DNA of 9,102 nucleotides from a virus (lineage: Duplodnaviria > Heunggongvirae > Uroviricota > Caudoviricetes): the IMG/VR virus record IMGVR_UViG_2547132281_000003, positions 1-9,102 of that record. The stretch is one strand, 5' to 3'. The translations under genes and the position numbers were made by a program. The notes under the pieces are model-generated. The model had not been told where the DNA came from. It searched no databases and saw only the letters and a program-made list of their open reading frames with translations. Position 1 is the first letter of the stretch; each line of letters starts with the position of its first letter. Below are positions 1 through 9,102 of the stretch, one piece after another.

Positions 1-648
1 ATGAAACACCGGACCTGGATCACTGAAGCTTTACGTCTTCACTTTGAAGAACATTTACCCCGGGTTGTGGCCGGGCGTCGCCTGGGTGTACCAAAATCAA
101 CAGTTTGTAGTATGTTCGTGCGCTTTCGGAGAGCTGGCCTTTCGTGGCCTTTGCCCGCAGGCATGTCGGAGCAGGAACTTGATGCCTGCCTTTACGGACA
201 ATTTTCCACGGTACCAGTCGTACGTCCTGAAAGCACCGTTATATCCGAAGCCCCCGTGGTAAAAAAACGTCCCCGGCGGCCCAACTTCCCTTATGAGTTT
301 AAAATCGCCTTAGTGGAGCAGTCACTGCAGCCCGGAGCCTGTGTGGCGCAGATCGCCCGGGAAAACGGAATCAACGATAACCTGCTCTTCAACTGGCGCC
401 ATCAATACCGGAAAGGTGGCCTGCTGCCTTCCGGAAAAAATATGCCGGCACTGCTTCCCGTGACGTTAACGCCGGAGCCGGATAATAAAATCCCGGCCCC
501 CGCACAGGAACCAGAGCAGATAAATACACCGTCCGACAGTCTGTGTTGTGAGCTGGTTCTGCCGGCCGGAACTCTCAGGCTTAAAGGTAAACTGACGCCG
601 GCGTTATTACAGACACTTATCCGCGAAATAAAAGGGAGCAGCCACTGA
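1..648 (+). CDS. tnpA: IS66-family accessory protein TnpA (orf1) with an extra ~85-aa N-terminal helix-turn-helix-like region
   Basis: The C-terminal ~130 aa (PNFPYEFKIALVEQSL...ENGINDNLLFNWRHQYRKG) aligns with the orf1 of copy 2 at 2726..3127. Its TGA stop (646-648) overlaps the tnpB ATG (648-650). The N-terminal segment (GRRLGVPKSTVCSMFVRFRRAGLSWPLP) has no counterpart in copy 2. Confidence 0.75.
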   Translation: MKHRTWITEALRLHFEEHLPRVVAGRRLGVPKSTVCSMFVRFRRAGLSWPLPAGMSEQELDACLYGQFSTVPVVRPESTVISEAPVVKKRPRRPNFPYEFKIALVEQSLQPGACVAQIARENGINDNLLFNWRHQYRKGGLLPSGKNMPALLPVTLTPEPDNKIPAPAQEPEQINTPSDSLCCELVLPAGTLRLKGKLTPALLQTLIREIKGSSH

Positions 649-995
649 TGATATCTCTCCCTGCAGGTTCGCGTATCTGGCTGGTTGCAGGTATCACCGA
701 TATGCGAAATGGCTTTAACGGCCTGGCATCAAAAGTTCAGAACGTCCTGAAGGATGACCCGTTCTCCGGACACCTGTTCATCTTCCGCGGACGCCGGGGT
801 GACCAGATAAAAGTGTTGTGGGCTGACAGTGACGGACTGTGCCTCTTCACCAAACGCCTGGAGCGGGGCCGCTTCGTCTGGCCAGTCACCCGTGACGGCA
901 AGGTGCACCTTACTCCGGCTCAGTTATCCATGCTTCTTGAAGGTATCAACTGGAAGCACCCGAAACGAACGGAACGCGCTGGAATCCGCATATAA
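648..995 (+). CDS. tnpB: IS66-family TnpB (orf2), 115 aa
   Basis: Typical IS66 orf2 sequence ([16 protein letters not shown]...LFIFRGRRGDQIKVLW...KRLERGRF). It is highly similar to the 115-aa ORF at 3124..3471 and is start/stop coupled to tnpA. Confidence 0.9.
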   Translation: MISLPAGSRIWLVAGITDMRNGFNGLASKVQNVLKDDPFSGHLFIFRGRRGDQIKVLWADSDGLCLFTKRLERGRFVWPVTRDGKVHLTPAQLSMLLEGINWKHPKRTERAGIRI

Positions 996-1014
996 CCCGT
1001 TGTAAAGTGAGGAT

Positions 1015-2586
1015 ATGGACACCTCACTTGCTCATGAGAACGCCCGCCTGCGGGCACTGTTGCAGACGCAACAGGACACCATCCGCCAGATGGCTGAATA
1101 CAACCGCCTGCTCTCACAGCGGGTGGCGGCTTATGCTTCCGAAATCAACCGGCTGAAGGCGCTGGTTGCGAAACTGCAGCGCATGCAGTTCGGTAAAAGC
1201 TCAGAAAAACTTCGTGCAAAAACCGAACGGCAGATACAGGAAGCACAGGAGCGAATCAGCGCACTTCAGGAAGAAATGGCGGAAACGCTGGGTGAGCAAT
1301 ATGACCCGGTACTGCCATCCGCCCTGCGCCAGTCTTCAGCCCGTAAACCGTTACCGGCCTCACTTCCCCGTGAAACCCGGGTTATCCGGCCGGAAGAGGA
1401 ATGCTGTCCTGCCTGTGGTGGTGAACTCAGTTCTCTGGGATGTGATGTGTCAGAGCAACTGGAGCTTATCAGCAGCGCCTTTAAGGTTATCGAAACACAA
1501 CGTCCGAAACAGGCCTGTTGCCGGTGCGACCATATCGTGCAGGCACCAGTACCTTCAAAACCCATTGCACGCAGTTATGCCGGAGCGGGGCTTCTGGCCC
1601 ATGTTGTCACCGGGAAATATGCAGACCATCTGCCGTTATACCGCCAGTCAGAAATATACCGTCGTCAGGGAGTGGAGCTGAGCCGTGCCACACTGGGGCG
1701 CTGGACAGGTGCTGTTGCTGAACTGCTGGAGCCGCTGTATGACGTCCTGCGCCAGTATGTGCTGATGCCCGGTAAAGTCCATGCTGATGATATCCCCGTC
1801 CCGGTCCAGGAGCCGGGCAGCGGTAAAACCCGGACAGCCCGGCTGTGGGTCTACGTCCGTGATGACCGTAACGCCGGTTCACAGATGCCCCCGGCGGTCT
1901 GGTTCGCGTACAGTCCGGACCGGAAAGGTATCCATCCACAAAATCACCTGGCCGGTTACAGCGGTGTGCTTCAGGCCGATGCTTACGGTGGTTACCGGGC
2001 GTTATACGAATCCGGCAGAATAACGGAAGCCGCGTGTATGGCTCATGCCCGGAGAAAAATCCACGATGTGCATGCAAGAGCGCCCACCGACATCACCACG
2101 GAAGCCCTGCAGCGTATCGGTGAACTGTATGCCATCGAGGCAGAGGTCCGGGGCTGTTCAGCAGAACAGCGTCTGGCGGCAAGAAAAGCCAGAGCCGCGC
2201 CACTGATGCAGTCACTGTATGACTGGATACAGCAACAGATGAAAACACTGTCGCGTCACTCAGATACGGCAAAAGCGTTCGCATACCTGCTGAAACAGTG
2301 GGATGCACTGAACGTGTACTGCAGTAATGGCTGGGTGGAAATCGACAACAACATCGCAGAGAACGCCTTACGGGGAGTGGCCGTAGGCCGGAAAAACTGG
2401 ATGTTCGCGGGTTCCGACAGCGGTGGTGAACATGCGGCGGTGTTGTACTCGCTGATCGGCACATGCCGTCTGAACAATGTGGAGCCAGAAAAGTGGCTGC
2501 GTTACGTCATTGAACATATCCAGGACTGGCCGGCAAACCGGGTACGCGATCTGTTGCCCTGGAAAGTTGATCTGAGCTCTCAGTAA
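1015..2586 (+). CDS. tnpC: IS66-family DDE transposase TnpC (orf3), 523 aa, ISEc8-like
   Basis: N-terminal leucine-zipper-like coiled coil, CxxC...CxxC zinc finger (CCPACGG...CCRCDH), and DDE-region motifs [14 protein letters not shown] and [16 protein letters not shown] Shine-Dalgarno sits at 1007-1011. Confidence 0.92.
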
Positions 2587-2590
2587 ATAT

Positions 2591-2616
2591 CAATACGGTT
2601 CTGACGAGTCGCTTAC
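2591..2616. repeat. Right terminal inverted repeat of IS66 copy 1
   Basis: CAATACGGTTCTGACGAGTCGCTTAC closely matches the right end of copy 2 (5071..5096) and ends with CGCTTAC. Confidence 0.7.
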
Positions 2617-2654: not shown

Positions 2655-2680
2655 GTAAGCGTACAGCCTGAACCGTCTGG
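2655..2680. repeat. Left terminal inverted repeat of IS66 copy 2
   Basis: Starts GTAAGCGT; it pairs with the reverse complement of 5071..5096 (GTAAGCGTGCAGCAAGAACCGT...) with a few mismatches. Confidence 0.75.
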
Positions 2681-2746
2681 TCAGAATCTGACAAATTAGA
2701 CAAAGTGGTGTCCACCAAATAAGTAGTGGGAACCAAAGTGTCAGAT

Positions 2747-3127
2747 ATGCAGAAAAATGTGACTCCCGGCAGGCGAAAAGGCTGCCCTAATTATCCTCCC
2801 GAATTTAAACAGCAGCTCGTTGCTGCCTCCTGTGAACCCGGGATATCCATCTCAAAACTTGCTCTTGAAAATGGCATTAACGCCAATCTGTTGTTCAAAT
2901 GGCGACAACAATGGCGCGAGGGAAAGCTGCTATTACCTTCTTCAGAGAGCCCCCAGCTACTTCCTGTGACTCTCGATGCAGCTGCCGAACAGCCAGAATC
3001 GCTCGCAGAGGACCCGGAAACCCTCAGTATCAGCTGTGAGGTAACGTTCCGGCACGGGACGCTCCGCTTCAATGGCAATGTCAGCGAAAAGCTCCTGACT
3101 CTGCTGATACAGGAACTGAAGCGATGA
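2747..3127 (+). CDS. tnpA: IS66-family TnpA (orf1); the ORF track begins at GTG 2726, the first ATG is at 2747
   Basis: Conserved orf1 core (YPPEFKQQLVAASCEPGISISKLALENGINANLLFKWRQQWREGK) parallels the copy 1 orf1. The stop and the tnpB start overlap as ATGA (3124-3127). Confidence 0.8.
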   Translation: MQKNVTPGRRKGCPNYPPEFKQQLVAASCEPGISISKLALENGINANLLFKWRQQWREGKLLLPSSESPQLLPVTLDAAAEQPESLAEDPETLSISCEVTFRHGTLRFNGNVSEKLLTLLIQELKR

Positions 3128-3471
3128 TCCCGTTACCTTCCGGGACCAAAATTTGGCTGGTTGCCGGTATCACCGATATGAGAAATGGCTTCAACGGCCT
3201 GGCTGCGAAAGTACAAACGGCGCTGAAAGACGATCCCATGTCCGGCCATGTTTTCATTTTCCGGGGCCGCAGCGGCAGTCAGGTTAAACTGCTGTGGTCC
3301 ACCGGTGACGGACTGTGCCTCCTGACCAAACGGCTGGAGCGTGGGCGCTTCGCCTGGCCGTCAGCCCGTGATGGCAAAGTGTTCCTTACGCAGGCGCAGC
3401 TGGCGATGCTGCTGGAAGGTATCGACTGGCGACAGCCCAAGCGGTTGCTGACCTCCCTGACCATGCTGTAA
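3124..3471 (+). CDS. tnpB: IS66-family TnpB (orf2), 115 aa
   Basis: Same length as the copy 1 TnpB and similar over most of it ([18 protein letters not shown]...TKRLERGRF), with its ATG in the ATGA overlap with the tnpA stop. Confidence 0.9.
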
Positions 3472-3496
3472 ATCTCTTTATCCTGGTTGTCACAGA

Positions 3497-3522
3497 ATAA
3501 GCCCGGTAAAATACGGGCTTAT
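3497..3522 (+). promoter_or_regulatory. Stem-loop overlapping the tnpC start codon of IS copy 2 (possible translational control)
   Basis: ATAAGCCCG (3497-3505) and CGGGCTTAT (3514-3522) are perfect 9-bp inverted arms around an 8-nt loop. The second arm contains the AT of the tnpC ATG (3521-3523), and no obvious Shine-Dalgarno precedes it. Confidence 0.4.
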
Positions 3523-5059
3523 GAACGACATCTCTTCTGACGACATCTTCCTGCTGAAACAGCGCCTGGCCGAACAGGAAGCGCTGATCCACGCCCTGCA
3601 GGAAAAGCTGAGCAACCGGGAGCGCGAAATAGACCATCTGCAGGCGCAGCTGGATAAACTCCGCCGGATGAACTTCGGCAGTCGTTCCGAAAAAGTCTCC
3701 CGCCGTATCGCACAAATGGAAGCCGATCTGAACCGGCTTCAGAAAGAGAGCGATACGCTGACTGGTAGGGTGTATGACCCGGCTGTACAGCGTCCGTTGC
3801 GTCAGACCCGCACCCGTAAGCCGTTCCCTGAATCACTACCCCGTGACGAAAAGCGACTGTTGCCTGCGGCGCCGTGCTGCCCGAACTGCGGCGGTTCACT
3901 GAGCTATCTGGGCGAGGATACCGCCGAACAGCTGGAGTTGATGCGTAGTGCCTTCCGGGTTATCCGGACGGTACGGGAAAAACATGCCTGTACTCAGTGC
4001 GATGCCATCGTGCAGGCACCTGCACCTTCGCGGCCCATCGAGCGGGGTATCGCCGGACCGGGGCTGCTGGCCCGCGTGCTGACCTCGAAGTATGCAGAGC
4101 ACACCCCGCTGTATCGCCAGTCAGAAATATACGGCCGGCAAGGTGTGGAGCTGAGCCGTTCACTGCTGTCGGGCTGGGTGGATGCATGCTGCCGGCTGCT
4201 GTCTCCGCTGGAAGAGGCGCTTCATGGCTATGTCATGACTGACGGCAAACTCCATGCCGATGATACCCCGGTCCAGGTACTGCTGCCGGGTAATAAGAAG
4301 ACGAAGACCGGGCGGTTGTGGGCGTATGTTCGTGATGACCGCAATGCCGGGTCAGCGTTGGCACCTGCAGTGTGGTTCGCTTACAGCCCGGACAGAAAAG
4401 GCATCCATCCGCAGACTCATCTTGCCTGCTTCAGCGGTGTGCTGCAAGCGGATGCGTACGCCGGGTTCAACGAGCTGTATCGCAATGGTGGGATAACGGA
4501 AGCTGCCTGCTGGGCTCATGCCCGCCGAAAGATCCACGATGTGCACGTCCGCATCCCGTCAGCACTGACGGAAGAAGCCCTGGAGCAGATCGGTCAGTTG
4601 TACGCCATAGAGGCGGATATAAGGGGAATGCCGGCAGAGCAGCGGCTTGCTGAACGTCAGCGAAAAACGAAACCGCTGTTGAAATCCCTGGAAAGCTGGT
4701 TGCGTGAAAAGATGAAAACCCTGTCGCGACACTCAGAACTGGCGAAAGCGTTCGCATACGCCCTGAACCAGTGGCCGGCGCTGACGTACTATGCAGATGA
4801 TGGCTGGGCTGAGGCGGACAATAACATCGCTGAAAATGCGTTGCGGATGGTCAGTCTGGGCCGCAAAAACTACCTGTTCTTCGGTTCGGATCATGGAGGA
4901 GAGCGGGGAGCGCTGCTGTACAGCCTGATCGGGACGTGCAAACTGAACGGAGTGGAGCCAGAAAGCTACCTCCGCTATGTCCTTGACGTCATAGCCGACT
5001 GGCCGATAAACCGGGTCGGCGAACTGCTCCCCTGGCGCGTAGCACTGCCGACTGAATAA
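3521..5059 (+). CDS. tnpC: IS66-family DDE transposase TnpC (orf3), 512 aa
   Basis: Coiled-coil N-terminus, zinc finger (CCPNCGG...CTQCD), and motifs [14 protein letters not shown] and [10 protein letters not shown]. It is collinear with the copy 1 TnpC but clearly divergent from it. Confidence 0.92.
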
Positions 5060-5070
5060 CACATCCCCGT

Positions 5071-5096
5071 CAATACGGTTCTTGCTGCACGCTTAC
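5071..5096. repeat. Right terminal inverted repeat of IS66 copy 2
   Basis: CAATACGGTTCTTGCTGCACGCTTAC; ends with CGCTTAC and is followed directly by the TTTTCCAC duplication. Confidence 0.75.
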
Positions 5097-5104
5097 TTTT
5101 CCAC
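5097..5104. repeat. Target-site duplication (right copy), TTTTCCAC
   Basis: Identical to 2647..2654. Confidence 0.85.
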
Positions 5105-5197
5105 CAACCTGTCCAACTTTAAAAAGTTACTTTTAAGTATATGATAAACATAGTTTATTAAACGTGATCCACTACTTTTAATGAAGAATATTCCCCA

Positions 5198-5233
5198 AAA
5201 CAGAAAGCCCCTCGACTGAGGGGCTTTCTGTTT
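5198..5233 (-). terminator. Intrinsic (potentially bidirectional) terminator hairpin immediately downstream of ogr
   Basis: AAACAGAAAGCCCCTC-GACT-GAGGGGCTTTCTGTTT is a perfect 16-bp inverted repeat with a 4-nt loop and a GC-rich stem, flanked by A-rich and T-rich runs. It lies 4 nt beyond the ogr stop. Confidence 0.75.
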
Positions 5234-5237
5234 GTAA

Positions 5238-5456
5238 TTACATCCACATAATTTGCTGCCCTGACGGCAACGGGTGCGGCCTCACGGCGTGGACTTCTCC
5301 CGGCTTCACGATGTATCGCTGTACCGACTCATAAGTGATGAACGTGGCGCTGCAATTCACGTTCTGGCACTGGTGATAACGCTCTTTTGTCGTGTCAGTG
5401 ATATAGCGACTTGTACGCGCATGTGCGGCATGCTGGCATAAAGGACAATGAAACAT
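5238..5456 (-). CDS. ogr: Ogr/Delta-family zinc-finger late-gene transcriptional activator, 72 aa
   Basis: MFHCPLCQHAAHARTSRYITDTTKERYHQCQNVNCSATF... matches phage P2 Ogr as I remember it, with the four zinc-binding Cys. A GGAAGAGG Shine-Dalgarno precedes the ATG at 5456. The 99-aa ORF in the track (start 5537) is an upstream in-frame extension. Confidence 0.93.
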   Translation of the reverse strand: MFHCPLCQHAAHARTSRYITDTTKERYHQCQNVNCSATFITYESVQRYIVKPGEVHAVRPHPLPSGQQIMWM

Positions 5457-5536
5457 CGCGAGCACCTCTTCCGGTTTTGTTAATGGTGCCATTTTATTTA
5501 ATTTATCCTTATAAAACAAACAGATAAAACAAAGCA
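5457..5536 (-). promoter_or_regulatory. Probable ogr promoter and ribosome-binding region (D-ogr intergenic)
   Basis: AT-rich 80-bp spacer between the D stop and the ogr start, with TTGTTT...TATAAG-like elements on the minus strand. This is a by-eye assignment only. Confidence 0.35.
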
Positions 5537-6700
5537 TTAATCATCATCTTCTGTTTCGTACTCCACATCAGAAAGCCTGACCTCAAGCTCTAAGGACGTC
5601 GTGAAGCCGCTATTATTCAGAAAATGTGTCACCTTAGTGATTGTCCAGTCCTGCTCGTCTATGACGCGCTTAAAGCCTGACACTCTGACCGGTGTTTCCG
5701 TGTAAATATCAGCACGACCAGTGGCAAGGCTGATGGAGAACTCCGCAACGCCCCGTTGCAGTTTATCCCACTTCGCCTGAGCGGCGCGCATGGCCTGCGC
5801 TTTCGTGGCATATACCGTAGTCAGGGCAAAAACGTTGTCAGCCTCACCGGCCATGTATTCACCTTCGCGCGCTTCCGGTACTTTTGGCGCTTTCTTCTGC
5901 GTGACCGGTTTTGCTTTCGGGTGCTCCAGTGCGCGCAGGTGTTTTTCTTTCTTTTTGCGTTTCAGTTTTACCTTCTGCTTTTGTGGTTTCGGGTCTTTGG
6001 TGTGTAACCACTTTGCCGTTACGCCGGTATAGGCTCCACGGTCAGCAATCGCAAAATGATGGCGGTCGCCGTCGCTGCGGGTTATGGTGACCTGCGGGAT
6101 TTTTTTACCGCTGGCCGTCACCCCCTGCCCCGCTTTGAGAAACAACAGTTTTCCCATTTTTACCGAGACCTCACCGCCGTTGCGTTCTGCAAGACGGGTC
6201 AGGAATTTCGCATCAGACTCCTGCGACTGGTCGATGTGCGGGATTTTAATTCCGGCCAGTGACGGAGCGACACTGGCTTCCAGCCTGTTACGGGAGGCTA
6301 TCGCCTCAACAATCGCACCGAGCGTGGTGTCATGCCAGGAGCCTTCCCGGCGGGAATTGAGCGTCCCGCGAAAATCTGCACTCCGGGCGCGGATGGTGAC
6401 CACATCCGGAGCGCCCCGGTGTTCAACCTCATCAACGGTAAATTTCCCTTTGCATACCAGGGCAAAACCTTTCCAGCCGATATAAACCGTCAGGACAGCG
6501 CCACGAACCGGCAGCCCGACCTGCCCGTCGGCATCGTTCAGTTCAATATCAAGCTGGTCAGCCTCAAAGCCCCGGTTATCCGTCAGGGTCATACTCATCA
6601 GACGGTCGCTGATATTGCCGGTAATATCCCTGCTGTCGAGCATCAGCATGTAATCCGGCGTCAGCGTACTGCCTGCATCAAATGTCAGCGCATCCAGCAT
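5537..6700 (-). CDS. D: P2 gpD-like tail protein (late control gene D), 387 aa, apparently full length
   Basis: Length and sequence match P2 gpD as I remember it (MLDALTFDAGSTLTPDYMLMLDSRDITGNISDRLMSMTL...). Its start overlaps the stop of the upstream U-like ORF (TAATG). Confidence 0.92.
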   Translation of the reverse strand: MLDALTFDAGSTLTPDYMLMLDSRDITGNISDRLMSMTLTDNRGFEADQLDIELNDADGQVGLPVRGAVLTVYIGWKGFALVCKGKFTVDEVEHRGAPDVVTIRARSADFRGTLNSRREGSWHDTTLGAIVEAIASRNRLEASVAPSLAGIKIPHIDQSQESDAKFLTRLAERNGGEVSVKMGKLLFLKAGQGVTASGKKIPQVTITRSDGDRHHFAIADRGAYTGVTAKWLHTKDPKPQKQKVKLKRKKKEKHLRALEHPKAKPVTQKKAPKVPEAREGEYMAGEADNVFALTTVYATKAQAMRAAQAKWDKLQRGVAEFSISLATGRADIYTETPVRVSGFKRVIDEQDWTITKVTHFLNNSGFTTSLELEVRLSDVEYETEDDD

Positions 6701-7047
6701 TATCCCGCCCCCGTCATACCCGTGAATCTGGTCGCCATACTGCCAGCCTTACCGATGAGCGATTCCGCCTGTTTACCGATATCGCCATAAAGCGCGGCCA
6801 GTGATTCATCAACGCGGGTGAGTGACAGCGTAAAATCAATTTTCCGGGGTGTGCCGTCTGCAAAGAAAATACTCCCTGTTTCACTCACCCTGCTGATGAC
6901 ATACATGCCGTAAATCATGCCGGTGCCATCCAGCAACGGCCACGCCCGTCCCTCCTCTGCCATCAGCCTGAGCGTGGTCATCGTCAGCTTGCCGCCGGTC
7001 AGTTCGGGATAAAGCACACCGGCCAGCGTCATGTTTTCCTCACCCAC
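6700..7047 (-). CDS. U: P2 gpU-like tail protein, probably N-terminally truncated (possible pseudogene)
   Basis: The C-terminal ~110 aa (TLAGVLYPELTGGKLTMTTLRLMAEEGRAWPLLDGTGMIYG...) resemble gpU. The track start is a GTG at 7047; the first ATG is at 7030-7032. The same frame stays open upstream to a stop at 7108-7110. My recollection is that P2 gpU is about 159 aa, so roughly 25-50 N-terminal residues appear to be missing. Confidence 0.65.
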   Translation of the reverse strand: MGEENMTLAGVLYPELTGGKLTMTTLRLMAEEGRAWPLLDGTGMIYGMYVISRVSETGSIFFADGTPRKIDFTLSLTRVDESLAALYGDIGKQAESLIGKAGSMATRFTGMTGAG

Positions 7048-7637
7048 ACCGAGAAACTGGTAGGCATCCCGTTTGCAGAATATGCCTGCCTCGTGGTCAT
7101 CTGTCCTTTACGGTATTTTTTCCAGTAAAGCGGGGAAATATTGAAAGCACGTGCAGCGCCAGCAACATGACCATAGAGGTGAGCCTGCGCCTCATCCGTA
7201 AACAGCGATTCTTTCTCGCCATGCGCATCCACCCAGGCATCGCTGAGTTCCTCATACATCATGAAAAGCTGCGATGAGATACGGGCGGCAAACTTTTTCA
7301 GCTCCTTGTCATTCATTCCCGGCAGGCGCGCATAGTGGTCACGCTCAGCCAGAACCCCCATCCACAAAAGCCATGCATCACGCTGTTCAACCGGTCGGTT
7401 ATAAAACGCCTCACGTACAGCGCGATTAAACTCAGGAATGAAAACCCATTTTTCACCGGCACGAGCCTTCGGTTTGCAAGGATCACGCAATTCAATAATT
7501 GGTAATTTATTTGCCTTCACCATTTCACTGACAGCTGTCTTTGGCTTCCCTAATAAATCAGCAAATTTATCCACATGAACCGCATCAAGCGGATACTGAA
7601 TCACATAATTTTCAGCGTCCATATATGGTACCCTCAT
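7029..7637 (-). CDS. cox: Cox-like (P2 excisionase / early-promoter repressor family) N-terminal domain fused to a ~100-aa C-terminal extension of unknown origin, 202 aa
   Basis: Residues ~10-97 (YPLDAVHVDKFADLLGKPKTAVSEMVKANKLPIIELRDP...ARAGEKWVFIPEFN...QRDAWLLWMG) parallel P2 Cox (91 aa) as I remember it. Residues ~100-202 have no match I recognise. It is divergent from the C repressor gene, and its TGA overlaps the first ATG of the U fragment as ATGA. Confidence 0.6.
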   Translation of the reverse strand: MRVPYMDAENYVIQYPLDAVHVDKFADLLGKPKTAVSEMVKANKLPIIELRDPCKPKARAGEKWVFIPEFNRAVREAFYNRPVEQRDAWLLWMGVLAERDHYARLPGMNDKELKKFAARISSQLFMMYEELSDAWVDAHGEKESLFTDEAQAHLYGHVAGAARAFNISPLYWKKYRKGQMTTRQAYSANGMPTSFSVWVRKT

Positions 7638-7758
7638 AGGATCCAGCCCTTTCTAAACCACTCAAAACCGTTTAGACGCTGGTTTATTCTCAAATCAATG
7701 GAACCTATATAGGTTCCAGTTTTGAGGGAATTTAGTCCCTATATAGGCACCATGTCAA
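7638..7758. promoter_or_regulatory. Immunity switch region between the divergent cox-like and C genes, with candidate promoters and operators
   Basis: AT-rich 121-bp spacer containing an 18-bp perfect palindrome GGAACCTATATAGGTTCC (7700-7717), a second copy of its CCTATATAGG core (7738-7747), a related CCTCATAGG at the cox start (7632-7640), and a TAAACCA...TGGTTTA inverted pair (7653-7686). Confidence 0.5.
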
Positions 7759-8052
7759 ATGAAATTAAGCGAAAAGATTAAGGCCTTGCGTGAGGCTGAA
7801 GGGCTAAGCCAATCAAAATTCTGTGAAATCATAGAGTTACCGCTAAGCACACTTAAAAAATATGAAGGAGGAAACTTTGAACCCGGTGGCACAGCTTTGC
7901 TAAAAATCACTATGCATCCCACATTCCAAAAATATGCTCTATGGCTTATGACAGATAAAACCGCGCCGGACGCAGGACAAATCGCACCGGCTCTCGCGCA
8001 CATTGGGCCAGAGTCAACAGAGTCCAACCACTCCGCGAAAAGGATTGGCTAA
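7759..8052 (+). CDS. C: P2 C-type immunity repressor (helix-turn-helix), 97 aa
   Basis: LSEKI...LSQ..., the helix-turn-helix region, and the C-terminal ...TPxFxKYxLWxMT...APxxGQIAPALAH... segment match P2 repressor C as I remember it. It lies directly upstream of int, as in P2. Confidence 0.85.
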   Translation: MKLSEKIKALREAEGLSQSKFCEIIELPLSTLKKYEGGNFEPGGTALLKITMHPTFQKYALWLMTDKTAPDAGQIAPALAHIGPESTESNHSAKRIG

Positions 8053-8121
8053 CTCTATATAAAGATTACATTTTCACCATTTGCTACCAAGATGGTGAAT
8101 ACAGCGCCGGAGGGCTTTCTT

Positions 8122-9102
8122 ATGGCAATTAAGAAGCTCGATGATGGTCGCTATGAAGTGGACATTAGACCTCGCGGTCGCGACGGAAAACGCATCCGCA
8201 GGAAATTCGAAAGAAAAGCTGAAGCACTAGCATTTGAGCGATACACAATCGCCAATGCCAGTCAGAAAGAATGGGGAGGCCAGCGAGCAGACCGCCGGAC
8301 TTTGAGTGAGTTGCTGGACATCTGGTGGAAATATCACGGGCAAAACCACGAGCATGGAACAAAAGAGTTTAATCATCTACTCAAAACCATCAGCGGCATA
8401 GGTGATATACCAGTGAGCAGGATGAGCAAAAGGGCTTTGATGGATTATCGTTCCATGCGACTACGTGATGGTATCAGTGCCGCAACGATAAACCGTGACA
8501 TGTACCGATTATCCGGCATGTTCACAAAATTAATTCAATTGGATGAATTTTCCGGGCAACACCCAATTCACGGACTGCCGCCACTGGCGGAGGCCAACCC
8601 TGAAATGACGTTCCTGGAAAAAGCAGAAATCGAAAAACTGTTAAATGTTTTGGCTGGTGATGACTTACTTGTCGCGCTTTTATGTCTGAGCACTGGAGGA
8701 AGATGGACGGAAGTTGCCACGCTAAAACCAGCACAGATTACAAATTGCAGGGTTACCTTCCTGAAAACCAAAAACGGTAAAAAGCGAACCGTGCCGATTT
8801 CTGAGGAACTGGAGAAAAAAGTTAAAGAGGAGGCCAGCGCCAAATTATTCAAAGTTGATTATGAGAAATTTTGCGGGATTTTACGCAGAGTGAAACCTGA
8901 TATACCACCCAATCAGGCAACCCACATCCTGCGGCATACATTCGCAAGCCATTTCATGATGAATGGGGGCAATATAATCGCACTGCAACAGATTCTGGGA
9001 CATGCGAGCATTCAGCAGACGATGGCCTATGCGCACCTTGCGCCTGACTATCTGCAAAATGCCGTCGCTCTGAATCCACTAAAAGGCGGAGTGACGTTAT
9101 AA
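8122..9102 (+). CDS. int: P2-type tyrosine integrase (site-specific recombinase)
   Basis: MAIKKLDDGRYEVDIRP... matches the P2 Int N-terminus as I remember it. The catalytic region has HxLRH and a C-terminal Tyr (ATHILRHTFASHF...QTMAYAHL). A GGAGGG Shine-Dalgarno lies 7 nt upstream of ATG 8122; the track ORF starts 30 nt earlier at 8092. The stop is the last codon of the window. Confidence 0.93.
   Translation: MAIKKLDDGRYEVDIRPRGRDGKRIRRKFERKAEALAFERYTIANASQKEWGGQRADRRTLSELLDIWWKYHGQNHEHGTKEFNHLLKTISGIGDIPVSRMSKRALMDYRSMRLRDGISAATINRDMYRLSGMFTKLIQLDEFSGQHPIHGLPPLAEANPEMTFLEKAEIEKLLNVLAGDDLLVALLCLSTGGRWTEVATLKPAQITNCRVTFLKTKNGKKRTVPISEELEKKVKEEASAKLFKVDYEKFCGILRRVKPDIPPNQATHILRHTFASHFMMNGGNIIALQQILGHASIQQTMAYAHLAPDYLQNAVALNPLKGGVTL

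Follow-up and report, generated by a model that had tools for sequence, protein, structure and literature searches.

An intact orphan ogr gene at the edge of a young P2-like prophage remnant in Escherichia coli TW14425

The DNA analysed here (the window, 9,102 nucleotides in full) very likely contains the canonical ogr gene of an L-413C/PD4-type prophage at the cpxP-fieF site of strain TW14425, left behind by two recent deletions and able to act only in trans. The gene is an orphan: it is intact and lies in P2-derived DNA from which the late promoters and, apart from D and part of U, the structural operons are missing. The window is 100% identical over its 9,102 bases to contig AELE01000001.1 (GCA_000166615.2), where the remnant sits between cpxP and fieF; the source strain is ETEC TW14425 (Guinea-Bissau, 1996; PMC4309559). 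We propose that the remnant arose by two recent illegitimate deletions, from cox to A and then from A to U. Ogr would be made from its weak sigma-70 promoter, P_ogr, as the read-through route from P_F is gone. With no target in cis, it would act in trans only, on a superinfecting or co-resident P2-like phage or on a P4-like satellite.

P2 Ogr is a small Cys4 zinc-binding activator whose site in the late promoters of P2 and P4 is an imperfect dyad near position -55. Activation of sigma-70 RNA polymerase goes through the alpha C-terminal domain, a contact defined by rpoA109 and by a suppressor at Ogr Tyr42. In the intact phage, Ogr is made from P_ogr and also by late read-through from P_F. The ogr gene of the window and its predicted expression signals are the following:

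5198 to 5233, minus strand: terminator of ogr and of the F operon, with a 16-bp perfect stem and a 4-nt loop.
5238 to 5456, minus strand: ogr coding sequence, 72 amino acids and a TAA stop, with zinc-finger cysteines C4, C7, C30, and C35; assigned by Pfam and by identity to the P2 and K-12 proteins.
5463 to 5470, minus strand: Shine-Dalgarno sequence AAGAGGTG, read from the sequence, 6 nt before the ogr ATG and invariant in the alignment.
5491 to 5519, minus strand: sigma-70 promoter P_ogr, with signals annotated in the P2 record and hexamers identical in the alignment.

The 72 amino acid protein begins MFHCPLCQ, with its start at 5456. It is identical to P2 Ogr at 72 of 72 positions (NP_046785.1), and to OgrK of E. 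coli K-12 at 71 of 72 (the difference is A57V). The match to the Pfam family Ogr_Delta (PF04606) covers profile positions 1-47 of 47 and places the protein in the family (E = 1.1e-21; 76.9 bits, curated cutoff 26.3). The cysteines of the CX2C-N22-CX4C motif are invariant in an alignment of the window, P2, L-413C, K-12, and M10 proteins, and Y42 is present in the window protein. A PDB search with Ogr returned no solved structure of Ogr (the best match was an NrdR zinc ribbon, E = 0.039), and a PADLOC scan of Ogr and D gave no match to a defence system. Given its identity to P2 Ogr, the protein would be expected to work by the same mechanism, binding the dyad at -55 and recruiting polymerase via the alpha C-terminal domain.

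The mechanical list of open reading frames contains a 99 amino acid frame at 5238-5537 on the minus strand, and an ogr of the same length appears in the L-413C record (22769-23068) and in the TW14425 gene calls. We rejected this frame as the real ogr, as its upstream ATG is out of frame in P2, K-12, and M10. The longer frame exists because of a 1-nt indel common to the window, L-413C, and PD4. The 99 amino acid version is evidently a frame artefact, and the true product is predicted to have 72 amino acids. The indel lies just past the stop codon of D (a TAATG overlap) and adds 27 upstream codons (window 5457-5537). Positions 5457-5536 are the D-ogr spacer, 80 non-coding nucleotides that hold the promoter and the 5′ leader.

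The original prediction described 5238-5536 as an intact ogr with its own promoter region, a good Shine-Dalgarno sequence, and a strong terminator. The gene is intact, although only 5238-5456 of that span is coding, and all three expression signals were recovered. P_ogr has a -35 hexamer TTGTTT at 5519-5514, a 17-nt spacer, and a -10 hexamer TAAAAT at 5496-5491; the P2 record annotates the same signals (-35 TTG.., -10 TAAAATG). Both hexamers are unchanged across the window, P2, L-413C, K-12, and M10, and substitutions occur in the spacer only. The terminator hairpin (5233-5198) has a predicted energy of -28.3 kcal/mol (z = -6.4) and is homologous to the terminator of ogr and the F operon in the P2 annotation. 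Unlike in P2, the U-run is broken up (UUUCUGUUUU), and for this reason a simple terminator scan missed the hairpin. The ogr gene therefore has a sigma-70 promoter of its own, between D and ogr, and a terminator in common with the F operon.

The strength of this promoter bears on whether ogr is anything more than an inert relic, intact yet effectively silent, inactive even in trans, and due to decay. P_ogr falls below the threshold of a 9-of-12 consensus promoter scan, and its -35 (TTGTTT) is poor. In P2, P_ogr is reportedly stimulated by an unidentified early phage function, which it is said to need for full activity, and is reportedly autoregulated. Given this need, basal expression of ogr in the quiescent remnant may be very low; its level in TW14425 is predicted here from the signals listed above. 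A superinfecting phage, on the other hand, would supply the stimulating early function. In addition, the promoter of K-12 ogrK is nearly identical to P_ogr of TW14425, binds the polymerase holoenzyme, and gives detectable mRNA. Sigma-70 holoenzyme alone binds the spacer between ogrK and yegZ in genomic SELEX (PMC3946193), and K-12 ogrK mRNA has been detected, at levels that change with conditions including stress (PMC5811628). An ogr RT-PCR product is also obtained from uninduced E. coli B cells (bioRxiv 10.1101/2022.11.09.515794). We consider it unlikely that the TW14425 gene is inert in this sense.

Upstream of ogr, the window retains the following parts of the prophage:

5537 to 6700, minus strand: gene D (tail/baseplate hub), intact, 387 amino acids, promoterless; Pfam Phage_GPD 5e-27, collinear with D of L-413C.
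6700 to 7074, minus strand: truncated gene U, with the first 35 codons gone; Pfam GpU, profile positions 41-120 only.
7075 to 7354, minus strand: internal fragment of the replication gene A, 280 bp, about nt 350-629 of A; L-413C 27468-27189, and 100% identical in PD4.
7029 to 7622, minus strand: chimeric open reading frame cox::A′; Pfam Phage_Cox 8e-23 and Phage_GPA 1e-8.
7729 to 7758, minus strand: early promoter Pe, TTGACA-18-TAAATT, 10/12 matches in the promoter scan, with the geometry of the Pe annotated in P2.
7759 to 8052, plus strand: immunity repressor C, 97 amino acids, helix-turn-helix; Pfam HTH_3.
8122 to 9102, plus strand: integrase, 326 amino acids; Pfam Int_N and Phage_integrase; the window ends at its stop codon.

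In a BLAST comparison with L-413C, the right half of the window falls into three segments (L-413C 21232-23099, 27189-27468, and 23342-25088). The first, window 5205-7074, carries ogr with its terminator, D, and U from codon 36, the A fragment lies in the middle, and window 7356-9102 carries cox (with only its last codons missing), C, and int. On the minus strand the genes run int-C-cox::A′-′U-D-ogr, the prophage order with two internal deletions. One deletion runs from about cox codon 94 to about nt 350 of A, with its junction at 7354-7356. The other runs from about nt 630 of A via cos to U codon 35, with its junction at 7074/7075 (BLAST breakpoint; 1-2 nt of microhomology), and took orf91, cos, Q, P, O-L, the lysis genes, R-S, V-G, and FI-T. 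Together they removed about 26 kb, and with it the genes for replication, the head, and lysis and most of those for the tail. Neither junction has more than 1-2 nt of microhomology, and an extra C is present at one of them. With so little microhomology, both deletions are consistent with illegitimate recombination.

At the first junction, a near-full-length Cox is fused in frame to residues ~117-210 of A and then runs into U out of frame; the longer frame of this chimera is 7029-7637. The A fragment does not include the P2 ori nick site, as ori is annotated much further into A. Beyond int, the contig continues into attL and cpxP. Since int, C, and the attR side look intact, the remnant might still be excisable. 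No match to Rfam was obtained in a scan of the window.

All four of the late promoters that depend on Ogr are deleted in cis: mapping to L-413C shows that P_P/P_O, P_V, and P_F are gone. Directly upstream of ogr remain two promoterless late genes of the F operon, the intact D and the truncated U. The statement that no late operons remain in cis thus stands for all of the late promoters and has to be qualified for these two genes. The check suggested with it, a search for TGT-N12-ACA dyads, proved to be flawed. A strict scan of this kind found one match in the window, a chance match inside an IS, and recovered none of the late promoters of the intact PD4 prophage, so the positive control fails. 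The activator site annotated for P_F of P2 itself reads TGT-N12-CCA (P2 P_F locus 1556-1584). We therefore rejected the strict dyad as evidence.

The sites at P_F, P_O, and P_V read TTGTG-N11-CCA or end in ACC, and we replaced the strict dyad with a relaxed motif taken from real sites, TTGTG-N11-MCM. This motif recovers P_O, P_V, and P_F in PD4 (3/4 late promoters) and P_V in L-413C, and has no match in the 9.1-kb window. A comparison of the PD4 late-promoter regions with the window likewise gave no meaningful similarity. We conclude that late promoters are absent in cis because the deletion map and the motif and similarity searches agree. The textbook dyad TGT-N12-ACA is too strict for late promoters of the P2 type, and genome scans that use it would give false negatives.

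The age of the remnant can be judged from full-length prophages (~30 kb) at the same cpxP-fieF site in strains M10 and PD4. The att core is the terminator region of cpxP and is duplicated at both prophage ends. Over the ~4,005 bases that the remnant retains, PD4 differs by two substitutions. The A fragment and cox-C-int match PD4 at 100%, and both mismatches fall in the 1,978 bp made up of the cargo-gene leader (described below), ogr, D, and what is left of U. They are at 5534 (upstream of the -35) and 6167 (in D), and neither falls in the ogr coding sequence or the promoter hexamers. From this similarity, the PD4 prophage would be essentially the parent.

Neither a set of 5,426 complete E. 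coli genomes nor the PLSDB plasmids contain the deletion junctions, and no record among them covers at least 80% of the whole remnant or of the junction region. An exact search for the A′/′U junction in 185,579 species-representative genomes gave 0 matches. The exact 197 amino acid product of cox::A′ (start MDAENY) occurs in one contig of the collection, AELE01000001.1; an exact-protein look-up with a 202 amino acid version of the chimera gave no match. Given so small a divergence from PD4, and junctions that none of the other genomes searched contains, the remnant is young and specific to this strain. The accessory cargo between A and Q differs between the two full-length prophages: PD4 has an RNA-directed DNA polymerase, retron-like (locus 14779-16323), and M10 has a gene of the DEAD/DEAH helicase family (11577-14060). 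This cargo fits a known defence hotspot of P2; the A-Q region is deleted in the window, and the parents are otherwise near-identical.

On the other side of ogr, the window contains two IS66-family elements and the start of a cargo gene:

1 to 2616, plus strand: second IS66-family element, with its left end outside the window, flanked by the TGATAATC duplication.
2655 to 5096, plus strand: complete IS66-family element, 2,442 bp, flanked by the GTGGAAAA duplication.
5097 to 5204, minus strand: leader of the cargo gene (PD-T4-10_B-like), 108 bp, carrying GTGGAAAA at 5104-5097.

In the complete element, Pfam HTH_Tnp_1 matches the first open reading frame, and the other two are IS66 TnpB and a DDE transposase in the TW14425 gene calls. 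The target duplications are 8 bp long, GTGGAAAA at 5104-5097 and 2654-2647 and TGATAATC at 2624-2617 and beyond the window. The 38 positions between the elements (2617-2654) hold the first codons of the cargo gene (MEKVIIELD). The elements appear to be two independent simple insertions, 24 bp apart, in these first codons. A deletion mediated by IS66 on the ogr side was ruled out, as both elements have intact 8-bp target duplications. The 108-bp leader is 100% identical in 86 complete genomes.

The cargo gene encodes 213 amino acids (WP_000416606.1, "hypothetical") and lies between the ogr terminator and the P arm of attP in prophages of the PD4/M10 type; it is absent from P2 and L-413C. Its product matches PADLOC PD-T4-10_B (1.3e-34) and has no Pfam match, which makes the gene a candidate anti-phage defence gene, in an unusual position between ogr and att. 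Both IS66-family insertions knock it out in TW14425 (locus 17700-18324), and an intact copy is present at the M10 locus (36546-37187).

The arrangement around ogr resembles that of several known prophages. As in P2, ogr follows D and precedes the attachment site, with the same P_ogr hexamers, Shine-Dalgarno sequence, and terminator stem. Unlike P2, TW14425 lacks the four late promoters, has the cargo gene and two IS66 elements between ogr and attR, and has an interrupted U-tract. PD4 has the same att core and the same cargo gene after ogr, but PD4, M10, and L-413C are of full length (about 30 kb) and retain every late operon.

The original prediction also pointed to ogrK of E. coli K-12 as a comparable orphan, and the comparison is apt. 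K-12 ogrK (b2082), in the cryptic prophage PR-X, is likewise an orphan ogr on the attR side of a decayed P2-like prophage, at its very edge, and is preceded by D sequence, in this case the adjoining D pseudogene yegZ. PR-X is a 629-bp stub (′D-ogrK) at another site, by cyaR/yegR (locus 7184-7812), and with its flanks it occurs in 884 of the 5,426 complete E. coli genomes. The TW14425 remnant, in contrast, has ~4 kb of phage DNA, keeps int, C, Pe, most of cox, and an intact D, and was found at cpxP-fieF in one strain only.

A further remnant, in strain 300081 (NZ_CM128587.1, locus 4001-8954), is at the cpxP-fieF site and has an intact ogrK with an identical protein, and it has also lost P_F. 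Unlike in TW14425, its deletion joins a truncated int to the tail tube gene; E, part of T, U, and D remain in it, while C and cox are gone. PR-X and the 300081 remnant are independent remnants with different deletions, both keeping ogr at the attR edge.

These comparisons help to explain why ogr has survived. It is the last core phage gene before attR and was spared for that reason by internal deletions, and we do not attribute its survival to selection; its position and the young age of the remnant are sufficient reasons. Deletions running past att would hit fieF and pfkA.

A selected role in trans would be a different explanation, in which the orphan is kept for a co-resident P4-like satellite or P2-family prophage, or because it benefits the host by premature triggering. 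The chromosomal ogr genes of K-12 and B reportedly complement P2 ogr mutants, which would favour such a role. It also finds support in the statement that Ogr, Delta, and Pag are interchangeable on P2 and P4 late promoters (bioRxiv 10.1101/2022.11.09.515794). However, P4-like satellites encode Delta and intact P2-like phages have their own Ogr, so an extra copy would be redundant, and the recency and rarity of the remnant likewise argue against selection of this kind. We regard a selected helper function as distinctly unlikely.

The deletions may also have placed ogr under new control. The palindrome CCTATATAGG occurs twice around Pe, within the spacer (7747-7738) and just downstream of the -10 (7713-7704). 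The downstream copy (7704-7713) is within a 20-bp perfect palindrome, TGGAACCTATATAGGTTCCA. The CCTATATAGG copies are probably the putative operators of C, which would be of a non-P2 immunity type. The cox-to-A deletion removed a hairpin after B, and the A-to-U deletion joined the early transcript to ′U-D-ogr. Pe, repressed by C, could now drive cox::A′-′U-D-ogr, and Ogr would be made when immunity lifts, for example through a satellite antirepressor.

Several features fit this arrangement. No difference from the intact parent occurs in Pe, the putative operators, or C (100% identity; for C, to the DNA of both the PD4 and M10 prophages), and the open reading frames from cox to ogr are all on one strand and overlap or abut. 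The hairpin after B, the only terminator-like hairpin in the early operon of the parent, falls in the deleted segment, and the terminator scan gave no strong minus-strand terminator between Pe and ogr. The idea is nevertheless drawn from geometry alone, and the arrangement would be an accidental product of recent deletions that carries no evidence of selection. With z = -1.0 the post-B hairpin is weak anyway, and we rejected it as a strong early terminator. We think it very unlikely that ogr has been rewired in this way.

There is a slight chance that the remnant goes further and works as an immunity-gated generator of Ogr, in which lifting C repression would yield Ogr without phage replication and fire the late promoters of satellites or P2-like phages prematurely. 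If true, immunity-gated Ogr would either help satellites or act against P2-like phages as an abortive trigger.

Domestication had been put forward in the original prediction and, understood as the host keeping ogr for the control of chromosomal genes, is extremely improbable. In its favour, ogr and its expression signals are intact, an orphan ogr is common in E. coli, and the K-12 ogrK transcript responds to stress while deletion of ogrK mildly alters the growth profile (PMC5811628). Against it, two substitutions in ~4 kb relative to an intact prophage leave no time for domestication, the junctions are found in one assembly only and the same remnant is not retained across a diverged lineage, the window has no site resembling a late promoter, and the position next to attR explains the repeated survival of ogr without selection.

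The reading that we prefer is therefore the canonical ogr of a recently deleted prophage. For TW14425 Ogr, action in trans on P2-like phages or P4-like satellites would be the only activity available, and we predict this activity from the identity of the protein to P2 Ogr; the chromosomal ogr genes of K-12 and B are reported to act in this way. An orphan ogr at the edge of a decayed P2-like prophage is already known, and has long been so from E. coli K-12. When a prophage decays by internal deletion, genes at its edges, such as ogr and int, stay intact, and an intact orphan regulator is not by itself a sign of domestication. In wild E. coli, experiments with late-promoter reporters of P2 and P4 or with phages defective in ogr can be confounded by a chromosomal source of Ogr of this kind, a complication already known from K-12 and B.
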